IMG/VR virus record: IMGVR_UViG_3300046787_000099
Location: 1 to 64,000 of that record
Length of the DNA: 64,000 nt
Origin: a virus
Reading direction: 5' to 3' (one strand)
Shown: piece after piece, positions 714-22,304 of the stretch
Layout: the number at the start of each line of letters is the position of its first letter
How positions within the stretch are numbered: position 1 is the stretch's first letter
Made by a program: the position numbers and the translations under genes
Notes under the pieces: model-generated
What the model was told of the DNA's origin: nothing
The model's database searches: none
The model's input: only the letters and a program-made list of their open reading frames with translations

Positions 714-735
714 GATAAATTTTTATTAAATATTA

Positions 736-2780: not shown

Positions 2781-2808
2781 ATAGTTTTCTCATTAAGAGG
2801 GGGTTTCG

Positions 2809-3117: not shown

Positions 3118-3118
3118 T

Positions 3119-3475: not shown

Positions 3476-3476
3476 G

Positions 3477-5788: not shown

Positions 5789-5815
5789 GTTGGTTTGTTA
5801 AAAAAGGGCAGGATA

Positions 5816-5947
5816 TTATCTACCTTGCCCTCTGTATTTTCTTTTAGTTGCATTTGCTTTTGGTCCAGATGTTTTAGCATGCTTGCCTTTGCGTCTTGTT
5901 CCAAATACAATCTTCTTAGATTCTGCAGATCCTTTTGCCTTTGCCAT
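5816..5947 (-). CDS. Small basic protein (43 aa) ending YRGQGR
   Basis: Manual translation MAKAKGSAESKKIVFGTRRKGKHAKTSGPKANATKRKYRGQGR; start overlaps the endolysin stop (TAATG). Confidence 0.65.
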   Translation of the reverse strand: MAKAKGSAESKKIVFGTRRKGKHAKTSGPKANATKRKYRGQGR

Positions 5948-6831: not shown

Positions 6832-6980
6832 TATTTCTTCTTCTTGTAAACTCTTTTCTTCTTAGGCTTAACCACAGGAGCTTCTTCTACTGGATCAAGA
6901 TCTATAATAGCACGTCTGATTTCCTGCTCAACCTTTGGAGCAGCAAACAGTAATGATTTAAGGAAGTTTAAAAATTTCAT
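6831..6980 (-). CDS. Small protein (49 aa), amphipathic N-terminus and Lys-rich C-terminus
   Basis: Manual translation MKFLNFLKSLLFAAPKVEQEIRRAIIDLDPVEEAPVVKPKKKRVYKKKK; stop overlaps the endolysin ATG. Confidence 0.6.
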   Translation of the reverse strand: MKFLNFLKSLLFAAPKVEQEIRRAIIDLDPVEEAPVVKPKKKRVYKKKK

Positions 6981-6986
6981 GGTTGG

Positions 6987-7592
6987 TTATTTGATTTTAT
7001 AAAAGTATGATGCACCGTACATCACCTGTCCATCTAGATCAACTGATGTAGTGATCTGGTATAGTTTATCTTTCTTAGTCTTGTATATCACACCAGCCTC
7101 AGCACCACGGATACCTAGAGAGTTATTAGCCAACACACCTGCTCCAACATAAAGATTGCGTGTTGGGGGTGCATACTTAGTGATCGTCTTAGTTTCCTTA
7201 ACAATAGGGATCTGATAATTCTCACGTGTTTTTCTGTTGGTTAATTTGTTCTCTCTTACAGAGTCTTGTACAAGGATGTATCCAAATGTAGATATTCTCA
7301 ACGTGTCTGAGTAGAACTTCTGGTTCAGATACAACTGTAACAATGCTTCGTACTGACGTTTCAATGCTGCATAGTTTGTATCTGGTAACATCTCTGGTTT
7401 AGATTCAATAGGAACTTCAACTTCATAAGGTACAGGAACCTTTCTAACTACAATAGAATCATGGATCTGCCATGATGTATCATGTACAGTGATGGTATCA
7501 TTTGGACGTGCTTCTCCTGCTGCCACATGCTTAGTGTAAGCATAGAAGATGGCAATCATGCAACATACAAATAGAATGATATTAACCTTCAT
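6987..7592 (-). CDS. Lysis-module membrane protein, possible spanin-like
   Basis: N-terminal TM, D-T/S-I beta repeats and C-terminal amphipathic strands (YGASYFYKIK); lies between holin-like genes and the endolysin. Confidence 0.45.
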   Translation of the reverse strand: MKVNIILFVCCMIAIFYAYTKHVAAGEARPNDTITVHDTSWQIHDSIVVRKVPVPYEVEVPIESKPEMLPDTNYAALKRQYEALLQLYLNQKFYSDTLRISTFGYILVQDSVRENKLTNRKTRENYQIPIVKETKTITKYAPPTRNLYVGAGVLANNSLGIRGAEAGVIYKTKKDKLYQITTSVDLDGQVMYGASYFYKIK

Positions 7593-7872
7593 CTTCTGGT
7601 AGTGGATGTGTATCAGCTCCTAATAGAGCTTTGTCGCGATCAGCTTCTGTTTTACGGTTCTGTACCTTCTCATAAGAAGAGATACCAAAGCATCCTGCTG
7701 TCAATGCAGCAAATACTTCAAGGATAATTGGTTCGATTACAAACTGCTTGCCTTCAAGTCCAGTGATTACATCAATGATACCGTAAGCTGCTAGAATACC
7801 AAATGATAAAAAGCCTAATACAGACTTCTCATTGATATCATTATCGTCTTTAAAAATGTCTAATAATTTCAT
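7582..7872 (-). CDS. Putative holin (2 TM)
   Basis: 96 aa with two hydrophobic helices and a charged C-terminus; upstream of the endolysin. Confidence 0.55.
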   Translation of the reverse strand: MKLLDIFKDDNDINEKSVLGFLSFGILAAYGIIDVITGLEGKQFVIEPIILEVFAALTAGCFGISSYEKVQNRKTEADRDKALLGADTHPLPEDEG

Positions 7873-7873
7873 A

Positions 7874-8164
7874 TTATATTTTGGTTAGGTATTTCCTTAC
7901 TTTATTGTCTTGCTCAGGTCTTATTCCTACCACATCTAACATCCTTACCTGTTTAGGTAGTTTGAATGGAGGCATTGTAGGAGCATATCCTGTCTTATAA
8001 ACTTCTCTTTCTAAGCCATCAATCCTCACTCTACTCTCTGCTGTTACTTGTATCAGCACATCCATCTTCTCATTCATTGTGTGAATGTCGTTCCATATCA
8101 TACCAAACATACCCACTACTAGAACGGATAAAGCTTTGTCTTTGATGTCTTGAAATGAAGCCAT
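7874..8164 (-). CDS. Single-TM coiled-coil protein (holin/antiholin-like)
   Basis: ALSVLVVGMFGMIW TM followed by a heptad-like segment; first gene of the lysis module. Confidence 0.45.
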   Translation of the reverse strand: MASFQDIKDKALSVLVVGMFGMIWNDIHTMNEKMDVLIQVTAESRVRIDGLEREVYKTGYAPTMPPFKLPKQVRMLDVVGIRPEQDNKVRKYLTKI

Positions 8165-8171
8165 AGATATA

Positions 8172-8214
8172 GAAAAAAAATAGCATACCCATCCCGTTAG
8201 GGCAGATATGCTAT
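8172..8214 (-). terminator. Intrinsic terminator-like hairpin directly upstream of the lysis module
   Basis: ATAGCATA (8180-8187) / TATGCTAT (8207-8214) stem followed by a T-tract on the minus strand. Confidence 0.6.
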
Positions 8215-8288
8215 GTAGTTAAAACAAAAAAGGAAGATTAAAACTAAGCGGAAAGTGCTTTCGAAACTAGCTGGTTACAGCTTAAGAG

Positions 8289-8296
8289 CAAATATA
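8289..8296 (-). promoter_or_regulatory. Bacteroidota-type -7 promoter element (TATATTTG)
   Basis: TAnnTTTG match with a TTG upstream, in an intergenic gap. Confidence 0.55.
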
Positions 8297-8331
8297 TGTA
8301 ATACAAATTATATATGCAAGTAAAATTTCAA

Positions 8332-8700
8332 TTAATACTCTTGGTAAGATTTCTCTTCGATGATATCAGAACCATACTTAATGTTGATAGCTTTCTTAAC
8401 AGCAGCTCTCTTGTCATTAGTAATATAAACTTCACGAGCAAGCTGGATGAATTCATTATCAAAGTCACCTAGTCTTTCGTACTCTCTGATCTTATCCTCA
8501 ATGCTCCACAATGTTAGATTGATTGAGCACAACTCTGTGTATAACTTGTCGATTAATATCTCAGCAGGGAAAGCTTCTATCAATAATGATAGTTCTTTCT
8601 GGACATTCTTTAGCTTCTCAGGATCAGTGATCCTTTCGTTCTTTATTACGAGAATACTGATCTTATCAGCTATTTCTCCTATACTAACATCTATTAACAT
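8332..8700 (-). CDS. DUF6165-like protein, divergent from the glycosyltransferase cluster
   Basis: VSIGEIADKISIL.IK.ERI.D.EKL.NV.KEL...LW.IED.IR..E...DFD.EFI.LAR.VY.TND.RA..KK.IN...GS.IIEEKSY recognised pattern. Confidence 0.7.
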   Translation of the reverse strand: MLIDVSIGEIADKISILVIKNERITDPEKLKNVQKELSLLIEAFPAEILIDKLYTELCSINLTLWSIEDKIREYERLGDFDNEFIQLAREVYITNDKRAAVKKAINIKYGSDIIEEKSYQEY

Positions 8701-8728
8701 GTCTGTTGTTTTTTTGTGTAAATATATC

Positions 8729-8736
8729 TAACTTTG
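8729..8736 (+). promoter_or_regulatory. Bacteroidota-type -7 element (TAACTTTG) for the glycosyltransferase operon
   Basis: TAnnTTTG match about 20 nt upstream of the ATG at 8757, in a 56-bp divergent gap. Confidence 0.55.
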
Positions 8737-8756
8737 AACAGACCAACAAAAATATC

Positions 8757-9704
8757 ATGAAAGAAGTTTGCTTAAATCTAAGCGAATGTCCAGCTCTTGG
8801 AGACCTTATCTGTGCTACACCTACAATAAGAAAACTCTCTGAAGCTTATGAACAGCCCATCACTGTGGTAAGTCCTATACCAGAACTGTTCAAGAATCTT
8901 CCATACGTCAAAGCTAGTTACAAAGCATCATCAATTGATTGGGATTATTTCAATCAACACTTCATCATGCACAACTCATTTACCAATGTAGGTAAGAAGA
9001 ATGAGAGAGGTGTAGAGATGAAGCATAACACCATGGACATACGTCAGTATCATGCTGTACAACTTGGTTTTATGTTGAACAGTCAGGAATTACATTGTGA
9101 CTACATTCCTACAGAGTATTTTAAGATTAGTATACCCCAAAAGTATATACTCATACATCCTGTACAGACATGGGCTAACAGAACGTGGGCTGCTGAGAAA
9201 TGGATGGCTCTAGTTAAGAAGCTCAATGATGATGGAGTGTATGTGGTTAGCATAGGTAAAGACAGCAGTGAGAAGGGGTTCTTCAATGTGGACAAGCCTG
9301 TATTCAACTTTGATATTCCTTATGGTATGAATCTAATGAATCAAACCAGTATATCAGACTGCTATCATCTTATAAAGAATGCAGAATGTTTTATCACTAT
9401 GGACAGTGGGTTACTACATCTTGCTGGAACTACAACCACTCCCATCATACATTTAGGTTCATCACTCAATCCTGATTTCAGAGCACCTTATAGATATGCT
9501 AGGCAATATGTTGATTACTCATATGTTAGAGGAACCTGTGATTTACAATGTTGTTCTAATATGAAGTATGGTGTAAAGGAATGGGGATCTATACAAGGTG
9601 TACAACCTTTGATAGGTTGCCTTGAGAATAAAGAAACGTTTGAATGTCATCCAGAAGTAGAAGAAGTTTATGAAGAAGTTATTAATCGTATCACCTCACT
9701 TTAG
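8757..9704 (+). CDS. GT9-like (heptosyltransferase-fold) glycosyltransferase with Cys-rich C-terminus
   Basis: ALGDLICATPTIRKL, NRTWAAEKW, FITMDSGLLHLAG are GT9 motifs; likely start is ATG 8757 (the track starts at TTG 8706). Confidence 0.8.
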   Translation: MKEVCLNLSECPALGDLICATPTIRKLSEAYEQPITVVSPIPELFKNLPYVKASYKASSIDWDYFNQHFIMHNSFTNVGKKNERGVEMKHNTMDIRQYHAVQLGFMLNSQELHCDYIPTEYFKISIPQKYILIHPVQTWANRTWAAEKWMALVKKLNDDGVYVVSIGKDSSEKGFFNVDKPVFNFDIPYGMNLMNQTSISDCYHLIKNAECFITMDSGLLHLAGTTTTPIIHLGSSLNPDFRAPYRYARQYVDYSYVRGTCDLQCCSNMKYGVKEWGSIQGVQPLIGCLENKETFECHPEVEEVYEEVINRITSL

Positions 9705-12282
9705 TACAGGAGGAGCACCACAGGTAACACTTAACAAGGTGGAACTACTCAAGGATCACTTTGATATCATGGTGGTTGAGTATTCATTCCTTGCATGGAA
9801 CTTTGTGGTTCAACGTAACAAGGTGATTGATATACTAGGTAAGAACTTTATCTCTCTAGGTGAAGATAAACTATCTGGTATCAAAGATGTGGTGGAAGGA
9901 TTCCAACCTGATGTCATATCTATGGAAGAGTTTCCTGAGATGTTCATGGGTGGCGAAGTGGCGAAGTGGCTATACTCCAAAGATAGAACATACAAGATTG
10001 TAGAGACTACACATGACAGCTCATTCAATCCTAAGGATAAAGTGTGGATGCCTGACAAGTTTGTGTTTGTTAGTGCATACAATATGTTTAAGTATGCTCA
10101 TCTAGATGTACCTATGGAGGTGATTGAATACCCTATAGATACAGAAGTGAGGATCCGTAAGTCCACTGATACAAAACATGTAGTGATTGTAGGACTCTGG
10201 ACACAACGTAAGAACCAAGGCTATGTTATTGAACTAGCTAAGAAGCTAATCAACTACGATATCAAGTTTCACTTCCTAGGTAATCAAGCAGGTAACTTTG
10301 AGAACTACTGGAAGCCATTGATGGAAGACCTACCTGAGAACTGTATAGTACATGGTGAGGTGGATAATGTTACTGAGTGGATCAAAGACTCTGATCTATT
10401 CTTGTTCCCATCTAAGGGTGATAGAGGTAACAAGGAACTTAATCCTATTGCAATTAAGGAAGCATTGAAATATCCTAGCCTACCTAAGCTAATATTTAAC
10501 TTAGATGTGTATTGCAACAAGTACAACAACTATGAAGATGTAAGCTACTTAACTGGTGATGCAACCACTGACAGTATTAACATGGTGGTTTCACTAAACC
10601 TAAAGCCCATCACCAAAGAGATTATTGTCATAGGTACATATCCTAACACTGATGTTAGATCACAGCTAACTGTTGATTGTATCACTGCTGCTAGGAAACT
10701 AGAAAGACCAATCATGCTGCTTAGTCACTATCCTGTACGTGATGATGTACAAGCAATGGTAGATTACTATGTATATGATGCACAAAATCCTCTAACACAC
10801 CACAGCTATTACAATCGTTTCACTCGTAGAACAGATGACATAACTGTAGAGATGAGAATAGAGGGTAATAGCAATCAGTCTCTTACAGTGCTAACTAATT
10901 TAGTTAATGGTGCTAAGGCTGCTAAGAGCTTTGGATTTAATAAGATGTGTTACATCACCTTTGATATCATCATTGATCCTCTTGATCATCATGAGATAGA
11001 GAAAGGATTTGCTAAGATAGATCACGAATGGAAAGCACGTCTAGCAACTCTTAACACTCCATTTGGTAAAGGTGTAAGCACCAACTGCATGTTCTTTGAT
11101 ACAAGCTTTGTTACTAAGCTGATAGATGATGTACGTGATCCAGAAGAATACAATGCCCTGTGTAAATCTATAGGGGCTCAGAACTTCTTGGAAGACTACA
11201 TGATCAAGAAGGTGGAAAGAACGTCAGGAGTATGGGTAGAGTATCCTGAAGAAGGAACATTCTTAAAGCATACAGGAGATGGTGTATCATCTAACAGTGA
11301 GTATGCTGGTATTCTTAACTATGAGAGATGGGATATTAACTACTTCTATTTCTATACATACAATGAGAATCTTTCAATGTATCACATGTATGCATACGAT
11401 AAGGACGGATATTCATTGCCTAACTATTCATTCAAGGAAAGAGAACTATATCTACAATTAGGTCATGATACACACAAAGTAGAATTAGTAGCAGATGATA
11501 ATAGTTCTACGAGAGTGTTCTTTGTAGACCAACCATCAGGTAGTATTGTAGTTAGAGAAGGAGAGCAACCAACTTACAGACCAAAGATTAAATTAGTACA
11601 TATACAAACAACACTAAACGATGATAGAGAAAGATTATCTAGAACGTCGCTGGAACAAGTACGAGATTACGGATGGGAGTACATCATCCACACGAATATC
11701 CCTTATACCAGCCTCCCACCCAAGCATAACTGTAACAGGCCACAAGCAGTCTCAATGGAGTTATTCGATGAGGATGAAGTCCAAAGAAGAGGCACAGCTC
11801 TTACACCAGCACACTACGGTTGCTATGAAGCCTTCAGGAATGCAATCCTAGCAGAGTTTGATGATTGTGACTATCTGATTGTATGTGAAGGAGATTGTTT
11901 GATAGAAGGAGATGTTGGAAAATTCATACAAAAAGTGGAGAAATGTGCTTTACTGTTGGATGATTGCAACATTAAGATTATGTCATTTGGTGATAAAGAT
12001 ACACTAGAGTTTGGATGGCCTCAGAGTCCTGTAGTTGAAGAAGTGAATGATGATATGTACATCACAAACCATTTGATAGGATTGCAATGCATTATGTTCC
12101 CAGCTAGTGTAAGTAGATCACTCAAGCATGTTCTATGTACACACAAATGGGATGCTGCTGATTTGTATTTCAATATAATATTCAGTGGTGAAAACATGGG
12201 TATTGTACATGAACGTTTGACAACACAAGCAGATGGTTACTCACTGATTGATAAACAAGAGAAGACATTCAGGAAGAAATGA
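9670..12282 (+). CDS. Multidomain glycosyltransferase: GT4-like N-terminus, unassigned middle domain, GT25-like GT-A C-terminus
   Basis: STGGAPQV..RKNQ..SDLFLFPS..ELNPIAIKEAL (GT4); HYGCYEAFRNAI..DYLIVCEGDC..ADLYF (GT25-like). Confidence 0.75.
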   Translation: MKKLLIVSPHFSTGGAPQVTLNKVELLKDHFDIMVVEYSFLAWNFVVQRNKVIDILGKNFISLGEDKLSGIKDVVEGFQPDVISMEEFPEMFMGGEVAKWLYSKDRTYKIVETTHDSSFNPKDKVWMPDKFVFVSAYNMFKYAHLDVPMEVIEYPIDTEVRIRKSTDTKHVVIVGLWTQRKNQGYVIELAKKLINYDIKFHFLGNQAGNFENYWKPLMEDLPENCIVHGEVDNVTEWIKDSDLFLFPSKGDRGNKELNPIAIKEALKYPSLPKLIFNLDVYCNKYNNYEDVSYLTGDATTDSINMVVSLNLKPITKEIIVIGTYPNTDVRSQLTVDCITAARKLERPIMLLSHYPVRDDVQAMVDYYVYDAQNPLTHHSYYNRFTRRTDDITVEMRIEGNSNQSLTVLTNLVNGAKAAKSFGFNKMCYITFDIIIDPLDHHEIEKGFAKIDHEWKARLATLNTPFGKGVSTNCMFFDTSFVTKLIDDVRDPEEYNALCKSIGAQNFLEDYMIKKVERTSGVWVEYPEEGTFLKHTGDGVSSNSEYAGILNYERWDINYFYFYTYNENLSMYHMYAYDKDGYSLPNYSFKERELYLQLGHDTHKVELVADDNSSTRVFFVDQPSGSIVVREGEQPTYRPKIKLVHIQTTLNDDRERLSRTSLEQVRDYGWEYIIHTNIPYTSLPPKHNCNRPQAVSMELFDEDEVQRRGTALTPAHYGCYEAFRNAILAEFDDCDYLIVCEGDCLIEGDVGKFIQKVEKCALLLDDCNIKIMSFGDKDTLEFGWPQSPVVEEVNDDMYITNHLIGLQCIMFPASVSRSLKHVLCTHKWDAADLYFNIIFSGENMGIVHERLTTQADGYSLIDKQEKTFRKK

Positions 12283-12947
12283 AAGCAGACGTAATCATAC
12301 TGACAGACAATACAGACATAGAGAGAACCAAACAAACTATTGACTCTCTAAAGAATGCTGAGGATATATTCAGAATCATTCTGGTATCTACTGGTGATCA
12401 TGTAGAATATGCAGGAGTTTCTGTATATTGCCCTATACATGAACCGTTTAATTACAATAGATATCTAAACAAAGCATTCAAGTATACAATGCATGACTGG
12501 GTTGTTATCTCTAATGATGATGTAAGCTATCATCCAAGATGGTTTACTGAGATGATGAAGGTGTATAGAAAGAACTCAGACATAGAATGCTTCTCTCCTA
12601 CAGATGATGTGTTGCAGAAGCTGTGGTTTCCTGACTTATTTAGTGATGAGCAAGAGTATGTTGATGGGTATGAGGTGACAAAGATGCTACAAGGATGGTC
12701 AATCACTATCAAGAGATCAGCACTTAACTCTATACTACCACTAGATGAACAGTTTGATATGTATTATCAAGACAATGATTTTGCTGAGCTGTTAAAGAAA
12801 GAACGTATAGGTCATGCTATTGTAAGAAAAGCAAAGGCCAATCACCAACAGACACACTCAATAGGAATGCCTATGAGTGAAGACAAGCTAACAAAGTTAG
12901 CAGAAGACGAAAAGAAATTTAGAACCAAGTGGAACATATGGACATAG
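12279..12947 (+). CDS. GT2-like (GT-A) glycosyltransferase
   Basis: FNYNRYLN, WVVISNDDV (DxD-like), LDEQFDMYYQDND motifs. Confidence 0.8.
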   Translation: MKADVIILTDNTDIERTKQTIDSLKNAEDIFRIILVSTGDHVEYAGVSVYCPIHEPFNYNRYLNKAFKYTMHDWVVISNDDVSYHPRWFTEMMKVYRKNSDIECFSPTDDVLQKLWFPDLFSDEQEYVDGYEVTKMLQGWSITIKRSALNSILPLDEQFDMYYQDNDFAELLKKERIGHAIVRKAKANHQQTHSIGMPMSEDKLTKLAEDEKKFRTKWNIWT

Positions 12948-13951
12948 TACAAGTTGCAACAGGACTAATCACAATACCACCAAACGGTTGGGGTGCTGTA
13001 GAACGAATCATCTGGGAGTACAAGACTAATCTTGAGAACTTAGGGATGAATGTAAGTATCAAGTATCCTAACGAGGTAGAGAAGAAAGATAATCAGATTG
13101 TACATTGTCACATGGCTAATACAGCTATTGAGATGAGAGACAGAGATATCCCCTACATCTATTCTCTACATGATCACCATGCTGAATACTATGGTAAAGG
13201 GAGTGGTGTGTACAACATCAACCTAGAAGCTATCAAAGGATCTGTTATATCTATCTGTCACAGTGAACACATTGTTGATTACTTTACTGAGACAGACAAA
13301 CTGTTCTATCTACCACATGGTGTGAACACAGATTTCTTTAAGCCATCAGATAAGGTGGTACATGATCACAGCTTGTTGATGATTGCTAACAACGGTATAG
13401 CTGGTGATAGTACAATTGATCGTAAAGGATTTAGATACGGGATAGAAGCAGCTAAGAGATTGAACTTACCTATCACTATAGCAGGACCAGAGAACAACAA
13501 AGCATTCTTTGAGGGACATAAGGATCTATTGGAGTATGAAAAGTTAACTCTTAAGTTAACAAATCCTACAGATAATGAAACTCTTAAGTTATATCAAGAC
13601 CACACCATCTTCCTAGCACCATCATTCTTAGAATACGGACATCCTAACTTATCCATACTAGAAGCAATGAGTTGTGGATTACCTATTGTTGGTACATCCA
13701 ATGTTACACTACCAGGAATGTATAACCTAGTAGAGAACACAACACAAGCTGTGGTTACAGGCATACAGTTCACTTGTGGTAAGTATGGAACTGTAAGACA
13801 AGAACAACTAGATCAACGTATTAACCATGACTGGTTAGTTATCTGTAGAGAAAGACTTAGCAAGATGTACAATGCAATATCAGTAATTGGTCAGAAGTGG
13901 ACATCAGAAGATACAACACAAGCTTACATAAACACTTATGCTAAAATATAA
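12938..13951 (+). CDS. GT4-like (GT-B) glycosyltransferase
   Basis: IPPNGWGAVERII, HGVNTDFF, RKG, EYGHPNLSILEAMSCGLPIV; likely start ATG 12938. Confidence 0.85.
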   Translation: MDIVQVATGLITIPPNGWGAVERIIWEYKTNLENLGMNVSIKYPNEVEKKDNQIVHCHMANTAIEMRDRDIPYIYSLHDHHAEYYGKGSGVYNINLEAIKGSVISICHSEHIVDYFTETDKLFYLPHGVNTDFFKPSDKVVHDHSLLMIANNGIAGDSTIDRKGFRYGIEAAKRLNLPITIAGPENNKAFFEGHKDLLEYEKLTLKLTNPTDNETLKLYQDHTIFLAPSFLEYGHPNLSILEAMSCGLPIVGTSNVTLPGMYNLVENTTQAVVTGIQFTCGKYGTVRQEQLDQRINHDWLVICRERLSKMYNAISVIGQKWTSEDTTQAYINTYAKI

Positions 13952-15002
13952 TTTCTATTTGATTGATGGGTTGTTCTTTGAACTAGTGAGTGTATGGGAC
14001 AATAATGAGTACACAGTTGCCTTTGTAGAGGAGATAAATGGACAACGTATAGAATTGTATTCCACTACACTAAAGCAGGGCATGTGGATGAAATATGATA
14101 GGAGATACTTAGGTAACTACTATGTAGAGATTAGAACACAAGCAGGTGTACTGAAAGATCGAATCAGTCTATTACAAGAACTAAAAGGTAAGAAGGTGTT
14201 CATTAGCTATGAGTCTAGCTCACTAGGAGATACCATAGCTTGGATCCCTTATTGCTTAGATTTCAAGAAGAAATACATGTGTGATGTGGTTGTGTCCTCA
14301 TTCAAGAACTTCCTGTTTGAATCAGTGTATCCTGAACTAGAGTTTGTAGGTAGAGGAGAAAAAGTGGAGAACATCGTAGCAATGATAGAACTAGGATGGT
14401 TCTGGGAGAGCAACAAAGAACCTGTCAATCCTGTAACTGTACCATTACAGCAGACAGCATGTAACATATTACATCTACCATACAAAGAGATAAGACCAAG
14501 GATTGTTGATCTACCAGGAGTGCTACTAGAAAATGATAGGTATGTTTGTATATCTACAAAGAGTACAGCTGAGTGTAAGCACTGGGACAAATGGCCTGAG
14601 TTAATCCAAAGACTAAAAGATCAAGGATACAGAGTGATAGAACTATCTAAGGAAGCAGATGATTTTGGTGCAGAGAAACTAGAGAACACTTCTCTAGACA
14701 GTGTTATGAATCACCTTCGTGGATGTGAGTTCTATATAGGACTGTCTAGTGGGATAAGCTGGTTAGCTTGGGCTGTCAATACACAGGTGGTAATGATTGC
14801 TAACTTCACAGAAGCTAACCACGAGTTCGAATGCATTCGTGTAGAGAATAGATCTGTGTGTAATGGATGTTGGAACAACCCTATGTTTAGATTCAACAAG
14901 GGAGATTGGAACTGGTGTCCAGAACATGAAGATACTCCTAGACAGTTTGAATGCCATAGGAGTATCTCTGTTGATGATGTAATTAAGAAATTACCAATCT
15001 AG
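13938..15002 (+). CDS. Aah/TibC-like autotransporter O-heptosyltransferase homologue (protein O-glycosyltransferase)
   Basis: SLGDTIAWIPY, FYIGLSSGISWLAWAV and the Cys cluster VCNGCWN..RF..GDWNWCPEH..RQFECHRSI resemble Aah/TibC signatures. Confidence 0.8.
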   Translation: MLKYNFYLIDGLFFELVSVWDNNEYTVAFVEEINGQRIELYSTTLKQGMWMKYDRRYLGNYYVEIRTQAGVLKDRISLLQELKGKKVFISYESSSLGDTIAWIPYCLDFKKKYMCDVVVSSFKNFLFESVYPELEFVGRGEKVENIVAMIELGWFWESNKEPVNPVTVPLQQTACNILHLPYKEIRPRIVDLPGVLLENDRYVCISTKSTAECKHWDKWPELIQRLKDQGYRVIELSKEADDFGAEKLENTSLDSVMNHLRGCEFYIGLSSGISWLAWAVNTQVVMIANFTEANHEFECIRVENRSVCNGCWNNPMFRFNKGDWNWCPEHEDTPRQFECHRSISVDDVIKKLPI

Positions 15003-15189
15003 CACTTGGTGTATTAGTACCTATGCTAACATTACCACTAGAGGTAATACGCATACGTTCTACACCAATGCTTGTGTCTGCATTACTAGTCTTTGCAGGT
15101 AGTACTAACTTCTCTGACTTAAGGTCAGAAAGAATCATGCCACTACCAGCAAGCACACCTAATGTTTTGATAAAGTCAATCCGCTTCAT
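14983..15189 (-). CDS. 68-aa protein: Tat-like leader plus one tail-fibre repeat unit
   Basis: MKRIDFIKTLGVLAG; ERMRITSSGNVSIGTNTPSARL; convergent overlap with the GT gene end. Confidence 0.5.
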   Translation of the reverse strand: MKRIDFIKTLGVLAGSGMILSDLKSEKLVLPAKTSNADTSIGVERMRITSSGNVSIGTNTPSARLVIS

Positions 15190-15191
15190 AG

Positions 15192-15656
15192 CTATACTTC
15201 CTCTGTAGGAGTGACCTCAGCTACTTCTTCAGCTTCTATTAACTTAAGAAATACATCATAGCGTCCTTCAGACTTAACATCCTTGATGTCTTCTAATGTA
15301 ACAACAGGATGTTCAATCTCTTTCTGTTCAGCTAGTAATGTATTGTACTCTTGAACAAACTGTCCGAACTTAGGATTGGATACAGTCTTAGCTTCATCTA
15401 AGAACGGTGCAATAAAGATGGCTCCATCTTTCTCTTCACCATATTTCTTGATAAGCTCATCACGTAATCCATCTACTACCTTCTTATCTGTAGAAATTGA
15501 ATCTACTAGTTTAGATAAACGATACTTGATAACTAGGTTGATGTTTTCTGACAACAATCCTTTAAGAGCAACTTCTCCAGTTTGCTGATTAGTTAAACCA
15601 CTGATCTCTGATTCCAGAGTAATGATTTCTGCAAGGGTTAATTTAGTCTTCTTCAT
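15192..15656 (-). CDS. Helical hypothetical protein, possible tail-fibre accessory (DUF1617-like)
   Basis: YRLSKL..RDELIKKYGE..F..EY..LL pattern; likely start MKKTKL at 15656. Confidence 0.45.
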   Translation of the reverse strand: MKKTKLTLAEIITLESEISGLTNQQTGEVALKGLLSENINLVIKYRLSKLVDSISTDKKVVDGLRDELIKKYGEEKDGAIFIAPFLDEAKTVSNPKFGQFVQEYNTLLAEQKEIEHPVVTLEDIKDVKSEGRYDVFLKLIEAEEVAEVTPTEEV

Positions 15657-15674
15657 TTTATGTTGATTTATTAG

Positions 15675-15682
15675 CAAATATA
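15675..15682 (-). promoter_or_regulatory. Bacteroidota-type -7 element (TATATTTG)
   Basis: TAnnTTTG match upstream of the ATG at 15656. Confidence 0.45.
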
Positions 15683-15691
15683 ACTATAAAA

Positions 15692-16048
15692 CTATTCAGG
15701 TGCAACAGTTGTCGTAGTAGTGGTTGTACTAGGCTCTTCTGTTGTTGTGCTAGTTGTAGTTGTAGGTACTGGTGGAACATACTCTCCTGTAATAGTTAAG
15801 TTAAGTTGTTCTGCAATCCAATCCCATGCATAAGCATCTTGTGACCACTCAGCATAAGCTTCACCTGTCATAGATAAGTTACCTTGAGCAACTTGCATTC
15901 CTACATTACCATCTTCTGTTTCAGCAAACAAACCATACCAGAATGTAGCAGATGTATTCAATGTTACATTCACTGCATATGAGTTAAGGATAACTGCTTG
16001 TTGTACTACTCCGTTGTCCCATACTGGAACTGCTTCAATTGTTTTCAT
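15692..16048 (-). CDS. Tail-fibre-associated small protein with poly-Thr C-terminal tail
   Basis: Downstream of the fibre; ends PPVPTTTTSTTTEEPSTTTTTTTVAPE. Confidence 0.6.
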   Translation of the reverse strand: MKTIEAVPVWDNGVVQQAVILNSYAVNVTLNTSATFWYGLFAETEDGNVGMQVAQGNLSMTGEAYAEWSQDAYAWDWIAEQLNLTITGEYVPPVPTTTTSTTTEEPSTTTTTTTVAPE

Positions 16049-16075
16049 ATTTTTTTATTTTAAAGTTACTAATAA

Positions 16076-16510
16076 TTATGGACAATATGTTTGTCCTGAC
16101 ACGATTTGTATTGATCCGTTATATCCTGCAGGTAATGTAGTTTGGTTAATTCCATTATAATAATAGAACACAGGGCTACCACTAGGTAATACATAACGTT
16201 GACCTGTACCTAATACAGGGTTTATCTTTGTCCAAGCAGCAGCACCACCAGAACAGTTATTAAGCTGATAGTATGTAGCTGCTACAGCAACTAGATTACT
16301 CTTAACAACCAATTGATTATCTGTCTTTCCTGATAAAGGAGATGTCTGAATATCTACTGTTGTTAATGCACCAAGCTTTGTCACCTCTCTATTGCTAGGT
16401 ATTCCAGGAGGTGGTATCAATCCAATCTGTATGAAGATGTTGTTGTTAACAGCATCCTGAAGATTAGCCCAGCTTACACACTGATTATTTGCTATTGTTG
16501 ACCAAGGCAT
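16076..16510 (-). CDS. Putative virion fibre-associated protein
   Basis: 144 aa, starts 1 nt after the fibre stop; Cys-containing beta-rich C-terminal domain. Confidence 0.55.
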   Translation of the reverse strand: MPWSTIANNQCVSWANLQDAVNNNIFIQIGLIPPPGIPSNREVTKLGALTTVDIQTSPLSGKTDNQLVVKSNLVAVAATYYQLNNCSGGAAAWTKINPVLGTGQRYVLPSGSPVFYYYNGINQTTLPAGYNGSIQIVSGQTYCP

Positions 16511-16511
16511 A

Positions 16512-19500
16512 TTATTTCAATTTAGCTTCTAACTCTTTTACTTTTTGTTCTAATAGTTGCACCTTAGCAACTAACACTTCACGATATGATAGACTTAACA
16601 AGCCATTATCATTGCTTGTTACAGCACTAGGTAATAACTCTTCTACATCCTGAGCATAATATCCAACCTCTTGCTTACCGTTCTTTACATACAACTTAGC
16701 TGTAACAGAATCAATATTCTTTACAATATAGTCATCTTGTATTAATGTCTTTATTGTCTTATCTGAACTTTCAAAGAATGATGTTGCCGTGACTGAATAA
16801 TTAAATGTTGCTGCTCCACTATTTGCAAAATTGAATACCTGTGTTCCTGTGCTAGGCACGTTTTCAGATGTTGCGTTTACCCATAAAACGAATTGACCTG
16901 ACCCACTATAATCATAACCTAAACCTGCATATTTTGTTGAATTTGAATTAAATACAAATACAGGGAATGTAGCAGTAATCATTGCCGTTCTATTCCATCC
17001 ACCTGTCATTGCGGTTCCACCAATTGCATGAATTGGTGCCTGTGGTGATGATGTACCAATACCAACAAAACCTGTTTGTGTAACATACAATTTGGTTGTA
17101 TTACCTGTTGTAATTCCAACCGCTTGATTTGCTCCATCAATAAAAACTGAACTATATTGAGAATATGAACTATTCCCCATTTGAATCCTTATTTTTCTTT
17201 TTGCGTCTGTGCTTGCTGTACCCTCTGCATAAAGACCACCTCCATCATTGAAAAATTGTAGATAATCAGATGTAACACCTAAATTAACAGGGCCACTTGC
17301 TAAAATTCTCATTCTTTCTATTGCAGTTCCGCTTGTACCTGTAAAGAATCTCGTATTATATCCAACAGGTGAAGATTTAATATCAAATTCGCCACCCTCC
17401 ATTGTAATAGTCGAACTTTCTGCAATTGAACTTCTTTCAATTACAATATCACCTTTAACGTGCAATTTTCCACTTGTTGATGTTGTTCCAATTCCAAAAT
17501 TACCTGCATCAGACATAAACATTCTTGTTGCATTATCTGCTGCATTGTTAAATCTTAATCCACTTGTTCCTGAATTTATCCACGTTGTATTTCCGCCAAC
17601 TGATCCAAAAATTTGATTTGATGGGCCATAAATATATCCATATGTGTTTGATCTACCAATATATATATTTCCGCCAAATTCAGCTTGACCGACTCCGCCA
17701 TCTAATACTATTTTTTCCGCTCCTGATGAATTATAAAAATACAACTGAACATTGTTTCCACCTGTTGTGTAAAATCCTGCTCCACGATTTCCTGCTGTAT
17801 TTGCAATATCTAGTCCAAATGATGATAAAGCATTACTTGTAAATCTACCCTTGCCAACAACATCTAATTTATATCCGGCATCTGTTGTGGTATTAATAAG
17901 CACATTTCCTGTACCCATTACATAAAACTTATTTGCAACAGTTAAATCAGCACTTGAACCATCTCCTCCTGTAATGTATAATCCAAATCTTGTTCCACCT
18001 GCATTACCATAACCAAAGTACATTTTATGTCCATTAGTCGCAGTATTATCCCAAGTGCTTAACCAATCAGAACCTGATTGATTTGAAGAAATAATAGATT
18101 GAGTTGCTGTAATACTGTTGTAAAATGTAGATGCTCCTGTAAATGAAAATGATGTTGCTATAAATGCCATCGAACGATATGCCGTTGCTGCATTATTAAT
18201 AGACTGAAAACCTACACCTGAACCATTATCATAAACATCTAAATTATTATTTGTACCTGTTCTAACTGTAAATATATTAGTTGCATAAGCTCCATTAACT
18301 CCTAATTTATTGTAAAATACTGCTGAACCTGAATTTAAGATATTAAAAAGCCTTGATGTATCTTCATAATTATTTATACCAAGTACTCCACCATTTGCTG
18401 TTGAACCACCTGTAAACAAAATATTACCATAAGCACCTGAATATAAAAATCTACTATAAGAACTACCATCAGGTTTTGTATAAATTACATCGCCAACTTT
18501 GCCAACATTTAACGCATTACCAACAGTAACTGATGATTGCGTTACAATTGTAGCATTATTTAAAATTTGCATTGCAACTGAACCTGTTCCATTTACATTG
18601 TCATTTGTTGCATTTACCCAAAATGTCATACAATTAGAATAATCATATCCAATTGCACCCCACTTTGTAGCGTTTGAATTAAAAATTAATGTAGGAAATT
18701 CAGCTTGTAATGTGACTGTCTTATTCCAACCACCTGTCATTATAGCACCACCATTAACGTGTAAAATTGTAGCAGGAGATGCTGTATTTATACCAACATT
18801 TGTTCCACTATCATAGATAATACTATTTCCAATCGTTGTGCTATTAGTAAACTTAGCTATGTAGTTTGTTGTACCAGAAATAGTTCCTGCACCACTTGTA
18901 CCACTGCTACCTGCTGCTCCATTTGCACCACTCGTGCCACTTGATCCATTAGCACCATTTGCTCCTGATGTTCCAGAGGAACCATTAGCACCGTTAGCAC
19001 CACTAGTTCCGCTAGATCCACTAGAAGCTGATGTACCACTTGAAGCACTTGTACCTGAACTTCCACTAGCACCTGCTGTTCCTGAGGAAGCAGAAGTTCC
19101 ACTACTGCCACTAGTTCCACTAGTACCAGAGCTTGCACTTGTTCCAGAGCTACCATCAGCTCCTGCTGTTCCACTACTTGCAGATGTGCCTGAAGAACCA
19201 TCAGCTCCACTTGTTCCTGAAGATCCATCTGTTCCAGTAGTACCAGATGTTCCAGTAGTTCCACTTGTTGCAGATGTACCACTGCTTCCTGACTCACCAC
19301 TAGAACCAGATGAACCATCTGATCCTGATGTAGCACTTGTACCAGACGTACCTGTAGTTCCAGAAGTTCCTGTTGTTCCTGATGTCCCCGATGTAGATGT
19401 TTCTCCTGAAGAGCCACTAGATCCTGAAGTTCCAGAACTTCCTGACGTACCAGATGTTCCAGCACTACCAGACGTAGCTGATGTACCAGAGGTTCCTGTA

Positions 19501-22304
19501 GATCCACTTGTACCACTAGTGCCTGAAGAAGCTGACGTACCACTTGTACCATCTGCACCTGATGTAGCAGACGTACCGCTAGATCCATCAGATCCAGAAG
19601 TTCCTGCTGTGCCAGAGGTTGCTGAACTTCCTGAGCTTCCACTTGTGCCAGATGATCCATCTGTACCTGATGTACCTGATTCTCCTGATGATCCGCTAGT
19701 ACCAGCTGTACCCGAAGAACCATCTGTTCCTGAGCTTCCTGATGTAGCTGATGTGCCAGAGCTACCAGAGGTACCTGAAGAACCATCACCACCCACAGCA
19801 CCAGAGATGTTTACATAGAAGAAAGAAGCTGTACCACCACCAACAACATCTGTAGGAGCATCAAATAACAATTCTCCCGTAGAAGCATTGTACGATACCA
19901 CCTCAGAGGTTTGATAGTTGTTACTATCTATTGCAATGATAATGTTTTGTCCAGGAGTGTAGGCTAAGTTTGTACCCACCATAAGACCACCTGATGTACC
20001 TAGTGTAAAGGTGGTGTTAGATGTAGTGGAGTATATATCTCCTGAAAACCCTGAAGATCCAGATGTTCCAGAACTCCCACTAGAACCACTTGTGCCAGCA
20101 GTTCCACTCGTTCCTGCCGAACCACTAGTTCCTGTTGTACCAGATGTACCTGAAGGTGCTTGGAATGTTGTTGTAGAGTATGAGTAATATGAATTACCTT
20201 CTGTATAGAATGTAAATGTTTGTGTATTGTTATATGTGTTCTCTATATAGAACTTAGCATATAAACGATCTGTAGGATCAACATCACCACCAGCCCAGAA
20301 AGCATCCACATATGCTTGCTGAGGATATCCTGTATCAGAAATAGGAGCAACACTAGTAGTGAATAATAATGTATCAACACCAAGAGCCGTGTGTTTGTAA
20401 ACCTCAATCCAGATAAGAGCTGTACCTTGAGGTCTATCACTTGTTCCATGTAAGAAGAAACTCCATAAACCTGCAGGAATACTCTCTACACCAGGCACTC
20501 CACCATCTGTAGCAAATACACCAAGCACTTGAGTTACACCAGAAGCAACAGTAAATGATGCTTCTTGTTGTACAGCAGTTGTAGGAATAGGACTCCACTC
20601 TTTGTATGTAGGAGTTCCAAATGCTGGATTAGTGTCATTAGATAGGTTGAAATAATACACCTGTCCACCAGAGATACCTGATGCACCACTTGAACCACTA
20701 GTTCCTGCTGTTGCAGAGCTTCCTGAAGTTCCTGAAGATCCATCAGTACCAGTTGTTCCCGATGAGCCACTTGTCCCACTTGATCCTGAACTACCTGCTG
20801 TACCAGATGATCCACTAGATCCTGATGTGCCACTAGAGCCATCAGTTCCTGACGAACCATTTGTACCACTAGAACCATCAGTACCCGATGATCCTGATGT
20901 ACCTGAACTAGCAGAAGTACCTGAGCTTCCAGACGTACCGCTACTTGCTGATGTACCACTTGAGCCTGAGCTCGCTGATGTACCAGAAGATGCAGAAGAA
21001 CCTGAAGAGCCTGACGTGCCTGAAGAACCATCTGTTCCAGATGATCCGTTAGTTCCTGATGAACCTGAAGAAGCACTTGTACCTGAGGAACCTGATGTTC
21101 CTGAAGAGGCAGACGTACCACTAGAACCACTAGATGCACTTGTACCTGAGCTTCCAGAAGAAGCAGATGTACCTGAACTAGCTGATGTTCCGCTAGAGCC
21201 ACTAGTGCCAGCAGTTCCTGATGTACCATTAGAACCATCTGTTCCATTTGTACCTGCTGTAGCAGAAGTTCCAGAAGATCCATTTGTTCCAGATGTACCA
21301 GAGCTTCCGTTAGTTCCTGAAGTTCCTGTTGTACCTGAAGTACCTGATGAACCATCTCCTCCTGATGCACCATCTAAGTTAACTGTCCATGATGAGTATG
21401 TACCAGATCCAACTGTTCTATTAGGAGCAGCAAATTGTAACTCTCCTGTTAATGAGTTATACGATATAACCTCACACTCTTGGAAGTTAGATGTATTATA
21501 AACAACAATAATTGATTGTGCAGGGCTGTATGCCAATGCTGTACCAATTGTTATTGTACCAGCATTACCTAATGTAAATGATGTTGTAGAAGTTGTTCTA
21601 TATCTATCTCCTGATAAACCGCTACTAGCAGAAGAACCAGATGATCCACTAGTACCTGAGGTACCTGTTGTACCTGTTGATCCATTAGTACCAGAACTCC
21701 CTGATGTGCCAGAAGTACCACGAGAACCTGAAGATCCCGATGTACCACTTGTTCCTGTAGAGCCTGATGTACCGTTTGATCCATTGTGACCAGATGTACC
21801 ATTGCTACCATTAGCACCATTGGTACCACTAGAGCCGCTTCTTCCTGATGTACCTGACGTACCCTTAGATCCAGAGATACCAGATGTACCTGTCGAACCA
21901 CTAGTACCTGAGGTACCAGCAGTGCCATAGAAATAACCTAATGTACCATCTCCTTTAACATATTGATTAGACGTTCCTCCTGTTGTACGGAATGCTAATG
22001 CTTCAATAGGTCCTTCAAGAGTTAACTTGTAGTTACCTGCAATCGTTGTATCCTTAATGAATGATCCACCTAACTCAACAGGCTGTCCTGTGCCTGATTG
22101 AACAATACCATTTTGGAATACATATCCTACATTGATCTCTTCAAACTTCTCATTGATTGATTGTAGAGCTTCTTGTAATGTATCGTTTGTATTGACACCA
22201 ATATATACCAAATTGCTTCCTTCATAGAAGACACAGTTTGCTGACAACACCACAGGACATGGAGCAGCAGAACAAATGGTAGGTGAAGTGGAAGTAACAT
22301 TCAT
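16512..22304 (-). CDS. Tail fibre with Gly-Ser/Thr collagen-like blocks and C-terminal peptidase S74-like chaperone
   Basis: 1930 aa; (G-T/S-S)n runs; NVGINT/NFGIGT/FVGIGTSSP fibre repeats; FFESSDKTIK..VGYYAQDVEELLPSAV..LSLSY..coiled coil. Confidence 0.85.
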   Translation of the reverse strand: MNVTSTSPTICSAAPCPVVLSANCVFYEGSNLVYIGVNTNDTLQEALQSINEKFEEINVGYVFQNGIVQSGTGQPVELGGSFIKDTTIAGNYKLTLEGPIEALAFRTTGGTSNQYVKGDGTLGYFYGTAGTSGTSGSTGTSGISGSKGTSGTSGRSGSSGTNGANGSNGTSGHNGSNGTSGSTGTSGTSGSSGSRGTSGTSGSSGTNGSTGTTGTSGTSGSSGSSASSGLSGDRYRTTSTTSFTLGNAGTITIGTALAYSPAQSIIVVYNTSNFQECEVISYNSLTGELQFAAPNRTVGSGTYSSWTVNLDGASGGDGSSGTSGTTGTSGTNGSSGTSGTNGSSGTSATAGTNGTDGSNGTSGTAGTSGSSGTSASSGTSASSGSSGTSASSGSSGTSASSGTSGSSGTSASSGSSGTNGSSGTDGSSGTSGSSGSSASSGTSASSGSSGTSASSGTSGSSGTSASSGTSGSSGTDGSSGTNGSSGTDGSSGTSGSSGSSGTAGSSGSSGTSGSSGTTGTDGSSGTSGSSATAGTSGSSGASGISGGQVYYFNLSNDTNPAFGTPTYKEWSPIPTTAVQQEASFTVASGVTQVLGVFATDGGVPGVESIPAGLWSFFLHGTSDRPQGTALIWIEVYKHTALGVDTLLFTTSVAPISDTGYPQQAYVDAFWAGGDVDPTDRLYAKFYIENTYNNTQTFTFYTEGNSYYSYSTTTFQAPSGTSGTTGTSGSAGTSGTAGTSGSSGSSGTSGSSGFSGDIYSTTSNTTFTLGTSGGLMVGTNLAYTPGQNIIIAIDSNNYQTSEVVSYNASTGELLFDAPTDVVGGGTASFFYVNISGAVGGDGSSGTSGSSGTSATSGSSGTDGSSGTAGTSGSSGESGTSGTDGSSGTSGSSGSSATSGTAGTSGSDGSSGTSATSGADGTSGTSASSGTSGTSGSTGTSGTSATSGSAGTSGTSGSSGTSGSSGSSGETSTSGTSGTTGTSGTTGTSGTSATSGSDGSSGSSGESGSSGTSATSGTTGTSGTTGTDGSSGTSGADGSSGTSASSGTAGADGSSGTSASSGTSGTSGSSGTSASSGTAGASGSSGTSASSGTSASSGSSGTSGANGANGSSGTSGANGANGSSGTSGANGAAGSSGTSGAGTISGTTNYIAKFTNSTTIGNSIIYDSGTNVGINTASPATILHVNGGAIMTGGWNKTVTLQAEFPTLIFNSNATKWGAIGYDYSNCMTFWVNATNDNVNGTGSVAMQILNNATIVTQSSVTVGNALNVGKVGDVIYTKPDGSSYSRFLYSGAYGNILFTGGSTANGGVLGINNYEDTSRLFNILNSGSAVFYNKLGVNGAYATNIFTVRTGTNNNLDVYDNGSGVGFQSINNAATAYRSMAFIATSFSFTGASTFYNSITATQSIISSNQSGSDWLSTWDNTATNGHKMYFGYGNAGGTRFGLYITGGDGSSADLTVANKFYVMGTGNVLINTTTDAGYKLDVVGKGRFTSNALSSFGLDIANTAGNRGAGFYTTGGNNVQLYFYNSSGAEKIVLDGGVGQAEFGGNIYIGRSNTYGYIYGPSNQIFGSVGGNTTWINSGTSGLRFNNAADNATRMFMSDAGNFGIGTTSTSGKLHVKGDIVIERSSIAESSTITMEGGEFDIKSSPVGYNTRFFTGTSGTAIERMRILASGPVNLGVTSDYLQFFNDGGGLYAEGTASTDAKRKIRIQMGNSSYSQYSSVFIDGANQAVGITTGNTTKLYVTQTGFVGIGTSSPQAPIHAIGGTAMTGGWNRTAMITATFPVFVFNSNSTKYAGLGYDYSGSGQFVLWVNATSENVPSTGTQVFNFANSGAATFNYSVTATSFFESSDKTIKTLIQDDYIVKNIDSVTAKLYVKNGKQEVGYYAQDVEELLPSAVTSNDNGLLSLSYREVLVAKVQLLEQKVKELEAKLK
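18885..21925 (-). repeat. Degenerate 9-bp-period coding repeats (Gly-X-Y) in four blocks
   Basis: Approximate blocks 21615-21925, 20670-21360, 20040-20155 and 18885-19790, separated by globular domains. Confidence 0.85.

Follow-up and report, generated by a model that had tools for sequence, protein, structure and literature searches.

A candidate protein O-glycosylation operon facing a proline-free collagen-like tail fibre in a phage family that is assembled very often

The first 64 kb of the complete, 111,973-bp IMG/VR virus record IMGVR_UViG_3300046787_000099, which has direct terminal repeats, make up the stretch of DNA analysed here (64,000 nucleotides, hereafter the window; coordinates refer to it unless the genome is named). 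Five overlapping open reading frames (ORFs) on its plus strand (8706-9704, 9670-12282, 12279-12947, 12929-13951 and 13938-15002) encode glycosyltransferases (GTs), the last of them related to the bacterial protein O-glycosyltransferases TibC and Aah, and the block converges on the minus-strand gene of a collagen-like tail fibre. We examined these genes as a candidate system by which a phage glycosylates its own fibre. The features on which the argument turns are as follows (aa, amino acids).

8757..9704, plus strand: GT9-family glycosyltransferase (Pfam Glyco_transf_9, E 5e-17); the ORF is open from TTG 8706
9670..10563, plus strand: GT4-like (GT-B) N-terminal domain of an 870-aa protein (Pfam Glycos_transf_1 / Glyco_trans_1_4, aa 163-267; GT1/GT4)
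10567..11367, plus strand: middle domain of the 870-aa protein, with a predicted GT-A / nucleotide-diphospho-sugar-transferase-like fold
11575..12279, plus strand: C-terminal GT-A domain of the 870-aa protein, from its predicted fold, with an invariant C-E-G-D motif in the alignment
12279..12947, plus strand: GT2 (GT-A) glycosyltransferase (Pfam PF00535, E 2e-7; phrog_22332)
12929..13951, plus strand: GT4 (GT-B) glycosyltransferase (Pfam Glyco_trans_1_4, E 7.5e-10; phrog_2170)
13938..15002, plus strand: TibC/Aah-family protein O-glycosyltransferase, P0003 (TIGR04414, PDB 4RAP)
16512..22304, minus strand: 1930-aa tail fibre, the proposed acceptor (Pfam Collagen, E 2e-71; PHROG tail-fibre families)

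Judged by its sequence, P0003 is a genuine member of the TibC/Aah family. It scores 232.3 bits against TIGR04414, above the equivalog cut-off of 200, over aa 38-351 of its 354 residues, and matches TibC itself (PDB 4RAP) by phmmer with an E value of 2e-43 over aa 50-350; its Pfam assignment is GT9 (E 9e-9). The Aah/TibC-like call made in the original prediction is thus borne out by direct comparison with TibC. Using the residue mapping from the TibC structure paper (PMC4358343) and conservation over 121 homologues (57-97% identity), we found that the catalytic base Asp110 of TibC corresponds to Asp98 of P0003, the β-phosphate ligands Thr226 and Lys230 to Thr210 and Lys214, Trp305 to Trp275, and the iron-finger residues Cys339/342/358/370 to Cys308/311/327/339, for which iron binding is predicted. 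All of these are invariant in the 121 homologues, which indicates an enzyme under selection, and P0003 is very likely to be enzymatically active. The position that governs stereoselectivity (Pro300 in TibC, Ser294 in AAH) is an invariant Ser in P0003 and its homologues. TibC has an N-terminal β-barrel domain and forms a dodecameric ring (PMC4358343); the corresponding Pfam model, TibC_1st, was not detected in P0003, in which the alignment to TibC begins at aa 38-50, and was weakly detected in a fusion protein of Microcystis phage Mel-JY01 (see below). Autotransporter heptosyltransferase (BAHT) genes usually adjoin the gene of their substrate, and TibC modifies Ser (for example, in N-S-G-G), not Thr (PMC4358343). 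No autotransporter gene lies beside that of P0003; the adjoining repeat protein is the collagen-like fibre.

The only credible plus-strand genes in the window are those of the GT block, the remaining plus-strand ORFs being nested inside long minus-strand genes, and the sign of the GC skew flips across 8-16 kb. The ORF survey, the skew and the Pfam matches agree with the earlier description of a sole plus-strand block of five overlapping GT genes. That description counted at least six GT domains; combining Pfam with AlphaFold2 models compared by Foldseek, we count up to seven GT-fold domains. For the GT9 gene, ATG 8757 is a more probable start than TTG 8706. Its product falls under the NCBIfam cut-offs of all lipopolysaccharide (LPS) heptosyltransferase equivalogs (the best, heptsyl_trn_II, gives 45 bits against a cut-off of 135) and matches TIGR04414 weakly (E 2e-9) as well as PDB 1psw (E 8e-7).

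Within the 870-aa protein, the GT4-like domain is the one partner that always occurs beside, or fused with, a TibC domain. Minimal clusters retain just aa 1-300 of this protein, and GT4+TibC fusions occur in Mel-JY01 and as open frames of 680-1177 aa in other lineages. The two remaining domains are silent in Pfam and were modelled from alignments of 16 sequences. The middle domain (pLDDT 75.5) resembles 3cgx (Foldseek 5e-7), KdsB, RmlA and PBCV-1 A64R with TM-scores of 0.41-0.46, and could be either a transferase or a sugar nucleotidyltransferase (as KdsB and RmlA are), two functions that the modelled fold does not separate. The C-terminal domain (pLDDT 82.7) resembles vaccinia H3 (Foldseek 1e-7), mimivirus R655 and GnT-I, and reaches its highest TM-score, 0.59, with the GT25 enzyme COLGALT1, whereas Pfam Glyco_transf_25 does not match it even at an E value of 1. 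Of the 'GT4+GT25-like fusion' in the original prediction, the GT4 part therefore stands in Pfam and the GT25 part reduces to a likeness of fold. The GT2 gene is missing from about half of the syntenic clusters. PHROGs returned nothing for the TibC-like, GT9, 870-aa and DUF6165 proteins (the last is encoded by a neighbouring gene, listed below). A simple hydropathy scan predicted no transmembrane segment in the five GT proteins, which are thus predicted to be soluble, and the block contains no gene for a flippase, a polymerase or a lipid-carrier priming transferase.

The plus-strand block 8706-15002 faces the minus-strand fibre gene, the convergent arrangement that had been described before. 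The fibre contains 373 Ser, 277 Thr and 162 Ser-Gly dipeptides, which agrees with the hundreds of Ser/Thr residues in G-T/S-S repeats noted earlier. A conserved N-terminal anchor is followed by collagen-like blocks, a β-rich distal half and a C terminus with a weak endosialidase-chaperone match (Peptidase_S74, E 0.003). The collagen-like part comprises 173 G-X-Y triplets in eight blocks (18885-21926; Pfam match in 9 stretches), for which a triple helix is putative; 80% of the X and Y positions are Ser or Thr and none is Pro, X being Thr or Ser in 86% of the triplets and Y being Ser in 66%.

In the sequences compared, presence of the enzyme tracks Pro-free Gly-Ser/Thr collagen-like ORFs within the phage family of the window, in unrelated phages and on bacterial chromosomes. 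We examined 48 IMG/VR loci with a TibC homologue, and a collagen-like ORF (75-95% Ser/Thr, ~0% Pro) lies a few kb away in nearly every one that has sufficient flanking sequence. The whole cluster is syntenic in the clade of the window; in the more distant loci, only the GT4-like N-terminal domain of the 870-aa protein stays beside TibC. Taking as the phage family those records whose capsid protein is at least 94% identical, we found TibC in eight of the nine that are at least 90% complete, and all nine TibC-positive family records have Ser/Thr-collagen ORFs (Ser/Thr fraction 0.72-0.89).

Two members of the family provide the complementary case. G060 (IMGVR_UViG_3300032213_000610; 91% complete) and G061 (79%) have a capsid gene that is 96% identical and carry no gene of the GT cluster, and their gene order is intact from a 1478-aa protein through the fibre N terminus to the lysis genes. 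The first 122 aa of the window fibre are 58% identical to those of their fibres, which are 2483 and 2208 aa long and have no collagen repeats; the only collagen-like ORF in either genome is small, of the GPQ type, with 4-7% Ser/Thr. On this sequence comparison, the two genomes represent a clean within-family loss of both partners, the enzyme cluster and the collagen repeat. Between its fibre and lysis genes (78496-81256; L283:12496-15256), G060 encodes a sulfotransferase (E 7e-20), a GT25 protein (E 3e-15) and an APS kinase (E 2e-12), which looks like a second, different modification cassette. A further pair, G007 and G009, was considered as a tight within-family contrast and dropped because they share only ~22% of their sequence (tblastx).

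The endolysin of the window is a poor marker of relatedness (63-86% identity, in contigs of all sizes) and hence served as an unbiased sampling handle. Among 54 control records picked solely by endolysin homology, 9 have both TibC and collagen, 2 have TibC without collagen, 6 have collagen without TibC and 37 have neither (Fisher p = 4e-5, with shared ancestry ignored). Both records with TibC alone are fragments, and the six with collagen alone consist of four fragments (3-27% complete), one collagen that is not of the Ser/Thr type and one spurious match.

The pairing extends to unrelated phages. Mel-JY01 (PP395634.1, L060) encodes a 1226-aa GT4+TibC fusion (4750-8430) that carries the GenBank label 'methyltransferase FkbM' and, 1.7 kb away, a 1016-aa Ser/Thr-collagen open frame (2-3049, plus strand; Pfam Collagen, E 1.4e-66). 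This frame runs to the start of the record, and GenBank annotates small ORFs over it instead. In the 735-kb phage LR756501, a GT4-like domain, a GT4 and TibC lie beside a Ser/Thr-collagen ORF. The co-occurrence of the GT cluster with G-S/T fibres, which the original prediction offered as a check, is seen in 9/9 TibC-positive family records, in the double loss in G060 and G061, and outside the family.

In bacterial genomes, a single-sequence scan gave nothing and an alignment-based scan found TibC homologues. On two Methylobacter chromosomes, a gene for a G-T-S collagen of 281-287 aa lies immediately upstream of that for a TibC homologue. In Methylobacter luteus (NZ_KE386569.1, L308:8923-11125), a 287-aa collagen-like protein precedes a 432-aa TibC homologue, and the pair sits between housekeeping genes, with mfd upstream, csiV downstream and no phage context. 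The same pairing occurs in several gammaproteobacterial metagenome-assembled genomes. In the Trinickia homologues examined, AIDA-type autotransporters follow the enzyme gene, and none of the Burkholderiaceae loci inspected contains a Ser/Thr-collagen ORF. A quick maximum-likelihood tree, midpoint-rooted and built without TibC and Aah themselves, separates 15 Burkholderiaceae and Selenomonadaceae rows from 37 phage and bacterial rows with SH-aLRT 100; the locus contains a Ser/Thr-collagen in 0/15 of the former and 25/37 of the latter, and most of the remaining 12 are short loci.

What is observed, namely a TibC-family enzyme whose catalytic residues are intact, its co-variation with the collagen repeat and the gene order, makes glycosylation of the fibre the best reading. 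We consider it fairly likely that 8757-15002 is a phage protein O-glycosylation operon whose acceptor is the phage's own Pro-free collagen-like fibre (16512-22304). Virion glycosylation by this cluster, as originally predicted, is thus partly supported, by comparative evidence and with the fibre as the probable acceptor; a general coat of the particle is not supported. We infer the acceptor, and likewise which sugar is used, in what order sugars are added and how the phage profits, along the following lines. The fibre polypeptide would be synthesised in the host cytoplasm, where the TibC-like enzyme would place the first sugar on Ser (perhaps Thr) hydroxyls of the G-X-S-G repeats, a transfer for which TibC provides a precedent on the Ser-Gly loops of autotransporter passengers. 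The second sugar would be added by the GT4-like domain, the constant partner of TibC, and GT9, the two GT-A-like domains, GT2 and GT4 would extend or branch the glycan. As the phage has no donor-synthesis genes, the proposed mechanism would draw on host nucleotide sugars. The likely outcome is a densely glycosylated fibre shaft, in which the glycan may stabilise a collagen helix free of Pro and hydroxyproline, shield the fibre from proteases or tune adsorption. Glycosylated Thr (galactosyl-Thr) in the cuticle collagen of a vent worm is reportedly a precedent for such helix stabilisation.

Several points weigh against fibre glycosylation. The whole case for a glycan on the fibre is comparative, and the characterised enzymes TibC and Aah act on β-helical passengers, not on collagen-like repeats. 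The sugar-binding Arg286 of TibC is Val256 in P0003, and Val, Thr, Ala or Ile in all 121 homologues. Characterised TibC and Aah need ADP-heptose, whereas PF01467, PF13580 and PF01370 are absent from the complete phage genome, which thus has no heptose-pathway, epimerase or nucleotidyltransferase/cytidylyltransferase-like gene. A heptose adenylyltransferase (rfaE_dom_II / TIGR02199) was likewise not found in 60 related records, in which TIGR02199 gave two sub-threshold matches, both in TibC-negative records. We would put the chance that the transferred sugar is a heptose at somewhat less than even, at best. Among TibC-positive phages, LR756504 shows no Ser/Thr-rich collagen within 20 kb, and the collagen of G004 (L048) is only ~30% Ser/Thr. 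The co-occurrence statistics ignore shared ancestry, and many of the records are fragmentary. Finally, the cassette in G060 would fit a slot for modifying the host surface as well as one for modifying the fibre.

Mycobacteriophages and giant viruses apart, the transferases of phages are generally taken to work either on DNA or on the surface of the host. The second of these roles, the usual assumption for phage GTs in aquatic-phage papers, is the alternative that survives best, and we regard it as unlikely. The cluster would modify the host envelope (the LPS core, the capsule or a surface protein), for example blocking superinfection or the adsorption of progeny to lysed cells, and would adjoin the fibre as part of a variable host-interaction island. 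GT9, GT2, GT4 and GT25-like folds are indeed typical of LPS and polysaccharide enzymes, the island between the lysis genes and the fibre is hypervariable (TibC 45-77% identical, capsid 94-98%), and the sulfotransferase/GT25/APS-kinase cassette of G060 occupies the same slot. However, the defining enzyme comes from a family that glycosylates protein, not lipid (PMC4358343), and the block has no transmembrane segment, flippase, polymerase or priming transferase. Envelope modification would also leave unexplained both the co-variation of enzyme and Ser/Thr-collagen in the family and the non-phage pairing in Methylobacter.

A slightly less likely target is a second class of Thr-rich sequence. Poly-Thr tracts (TTTTTTTVAP units) occur on at least six proteins of the window, and the following encode mucin-like poly-Thr proteins, several of them virion proteins unrelated to one another.

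15692-16048, 46355-51790, 55337-55993, 56005-56391 and 58081-59226 of the window: mucin-like poly-Thr proteins, the first directly adjoining the GT cluster
108981-109481 of the genome: a further mucin-like poly-Thr protein

If the tracts on the 1811-aa structural protein and on the 218-, 128-, 381- and 118-aa proteins were the main substrate, rather than the collagen blocks, the system would be mycobacteriophage-like; in those phages, the capsid and tail-tube subunits are glycosylated at their C termini (Freeman 2023, as cited in PMC12619734). The tracts are real, present on at least six proteins and in one case next to the cluster (15692-16048). They are nevertheless decoupled from it: G060 and G061 keep 12-15 poly-Ser/Thr tracts with neither TibC nor any other gene of the GT cluster, and G009 has TibC and collagen and no poly-Thr tract. 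TibC, moreover, acts on Ser, not Thr (PMC4358343). The originally proposed tie between poly-Thr tails and the GT cluster is accordingly not supported by co-occurrence, nor is its extension to a glycan-coated particle; the tracts are a separate story from that of the TibC cluster. Beside the poly-Thr protein at the end of the genome lies a 338-aa ORF (genome 109487-110503, minus strand; L343:3487-4503) that is 73% identical in G060 and G061 and has no Pfam match. The gene is absent from G007 and G009, both of which have no poly-Thr tracts, so that in this small sample it is this different conserved gene that co-occurs with the tracts.

It is more improbable again that the TibC-like and Ser/Thr-collagen genes have no functional link and merely travel together in a mobile fibre module, the enzyme acting elsewhere or on nothing. 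The module does move horizontally as a block (G009, with which the phage shares little else, has the 118- and 144-aa proteins of the interval between GT block and fibre at 84-88% identity), and the association statistics ignore phylogeny. Yet the pairing outlasts rearrangements and changes of architecture, from stand-alone enzymes to fusions of 680, ~715, ~1150 and 1226 aa, and exists as a minimal two-gene pair between housekeeping genes in Methylobacter, and the catalytic residues are invariant in 121 homologues. Glycosylation of phage DNA (hypermodified bases) against restriction, according to reviews a common role of phage GTs, can be rejected as exceedingly improbable, because the complete genome has no thymidylate-synthase or hydroxymethylase-family gene, the key enzyme belongs to a protein O-glycosyltransferase family, and the cluster lies in the structural/lysis region and co-varies with a feature of the fibre.

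If the fibre is indeed the acceptor, collagen-like fibres would be the substrate of an entire branch of an enzyme family so far known only from the adhesins of pathogens, and this would explain the stability of the Pro-free Gly-Ser/Thr 'collagens' that are common in aquatic phage fibres. It would also add a glycan layer to host recognition in a very frequently assembled IMG/VR phage family, and offer a compact system for glycosylating repetitive proteins, with a GT4-like domain and a TibC-like enzyme as its minimal form. More speculatively, a distinct and widespread TibC branch may be dedicated to the Pro-free Gly-Ser/Thr collagens of phages and bacteria, with dense O-glycosylation replacing hydroxyproline in stabilising the triple helix. 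In that scenario, which we raise only tentatively, fibre type and modification cassette would be swapped together (collagen and TibC with up to six GT domains, versus a β-roll fibre with sulfotransferase, GT25 and APS kinase), and glycan diversity would take part in an arms race over host range and defence evasion.

Flanking the GT block and the fibre are the following features.

8332..8700, minus strand: DUF6165 gene, divergent from the GT block (Pfam PF19662, E 1e-9)
8729..8736, plus strand: TAACTTTG, which fits the Bacteroidota-type -7 motif TAnnTTTG and lies 20 nt upstream of the probable start codon, ATG 8757
15192..16510, minus strand: three small genes between the GT block and the fibre, encoding 161 aa, 118 aa (poly-Thr C terminus) and 144 aa

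The divergent DUF6165-like gene had been recognised in the original prediction, and the PF19662 match confirms it. Its linkage to the TibC gene survives rearrangements (it lies directly downstream of TibC in loci L023-L031 and upstream in L048), and DUF6165 Atlas clusters are mostly viral; the protein may be an accessory factor of the system. The block had also been credited with its own TAnnTTTG promoter. The motif is present at 8729-8736, whereas its status as a promoter is not sustained by the counts: across the window, 68 matches were found against 65.5 expected, which is no enrichment, and in intergenic DNA 7 against 2.8, a modest one. We therefore rejected TAnnTTTG as promoter evidence and keep it as a positional hint. 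The 161-, 118- and 144-aa proteins have no Pfam or PHROG match. G009 and L090 have versions of the 118- and 144-aa proteins at 80-88% identity, and L032-L042 have the 161-aa protein at 73-77%; these small genes travel with the fibre/TibC module into another phage family.

The capsid protein (61128-62681) matches phrog_11589, and its nearest named relatives are those of Leptolyngbya phage Lbo-JY46 (26% identity) and the Flavobacterium FpV group (22%), which Yutin et al. (PMC7886860) placed beside the crAss assemblage. The 'crAss-like' label of the original prediction thus finds a link through the FpV-group capsid and, at 22% identity, would denote only a distant affiliation. The same capsid gene, at 94-98% identity, occurs in at least 598 IMG/VR contigs, a number that places the family among the phage families most frequently assembled in IMG/VR. 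Megablast of the region against GenBank phages gave no match. The bacterial-bin contigs closest to the TibC gene of the window are short and of low GC content; their bins are those of Sediminibacterium, Chitinophaga and Lutibacter and, for one contig at 50% identity, of a gammaproteobacterium. These bin labels, together with the TAnnTTTG motifs that precede several genes of the window, hint weakly at a Bacteroidota host.

The fibre/GT region is a hypervariable island, with TibC 45-77% identical on contigs whose capsid is 94-98% identical and the rest of the genome very conserved. The stretch 823-7872 comprises an envelope cassette, the endolysin gene (5947-6831; PG_binding_1 and GH19) and small lysis-region genes. 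More than 575 contigs, of 4 to 254 kb, carry the endolysin at 63-86% identity, and a 588-aa cohesin-domain protein, together with its neighbours, shows 70-80% identity to counterparts in 64-66-kb phages with little other sequence in common; by these comparisons, 823-7872 is a widely exchanged lysis/envelope module. A single 3945-aa ORF (26849-38686, minus strand) lies in the virion block; parts of its product show 31-54% identity to the homologues in G060 and G061.

The proposed system resembles several known ones, each in part. TibC-TibA and Aah-AIDA-I of Escherichia coli (BAHT; TIGR04414; PDB 4RAP/4RB4; PMC4358343) belong to the same family by the equivalog cut-off. The phage enzyme has in common with them the catalytic Asp, the β-phosphate-binding Thr and Lys, the Trp and the four-Cys iron finger, and in both cases the enzyme gene lies beside that of a repetitive, Ser-rich secreted or surface fibrous protein in which many acceptor Ser residues, actual or proposed, are followed by Gly. 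The neighbour of the phage enzyme is a Pro-free collagen-like fibre, however, whereas theirs is a β-helical autotransporter passenger; Arg286 of TibC is replaced by Val and heptose genes are missing from the phage; and on the quick tree, homologues from phages and from collagen-linked loci part from those of Burkholderiaceae that are linked to AIDA. The phage enzyme also lies beside, and elsewhere is fused to, a GT4-like domain, here with four more GT genes, which implies an oligosaccharide and not single heptoses.

The nearest analogue shown by experiment is the SgtA-BclA3 pair of Clostridioides difficile, in which SgtA, encoded beside bclA3, O-glycosylates Thr/Ser in the collagen-like repeats of BclA3 (PMC7157674). 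As these systems and BclA of Bacillus anthracis (Daubenspeck 2004, cited in PMC11923368) are described there, a transferase gene lies beside that of a collagen-like protein, and an external fibre is O-glycosylated on Thr/Ser at the X and Y positions of G-X-Y, as we propose for the phage. SgtA differs, in the same accounts, in being a GT-A O-GlcNAc transferase, its repeats are of the GPT type with Pro, and the particle is a bacterial spore, not a virion. Mycobacteriophages modify their own virion proteins with their own GTs, encoded beside structural genes (Freeman et al. 2023, PMC10527164, as cited in PMC12619734); in that citing account, C-terminal tails of the capsid and tail-tube subunits bear the glycans, and the GTs belong to types other than TibC, whereas here it is the collagen-like fibre that co-varies with the cluster, by co-occurrence, and poly-Thr tails of the mycobacteriophage kind do not. 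Giant viruses and chloroviruses glycosylate their own surface fibres or capsid with virus-encoded enzymes, and PBCV-1 A64R, mimivirus R655/R699, COLGALT1/GT25 and LH3 resemble the two Pfam-silent domains of the 870-aa protein by their GT-A fold, a likeness at the level of the fold only (TM-scores 0.4-0.6, 10-14% identity); animal collagen, in contrast, is glycosylated on hydroxylysine, not on Ser/Thr. Literature searches returned no relevant paper on TibC/BAHT in phages, on TibC/BAHT with collagen-like proteins or on glycosylated collagen-like tail fibres, and the mycobacteriophage case was the only tailed-phage virion glycosylation that turned up in them. What is new here is a BAHT-family enzyme in a phage with a new class of neighbouring repeat protein, to which the window contributes the most elaborate cluster, in which five genes encode up to seven GT-fold domains, a clean case of both partners being lost within one family, and the decoupling of the poly-Thr tails.

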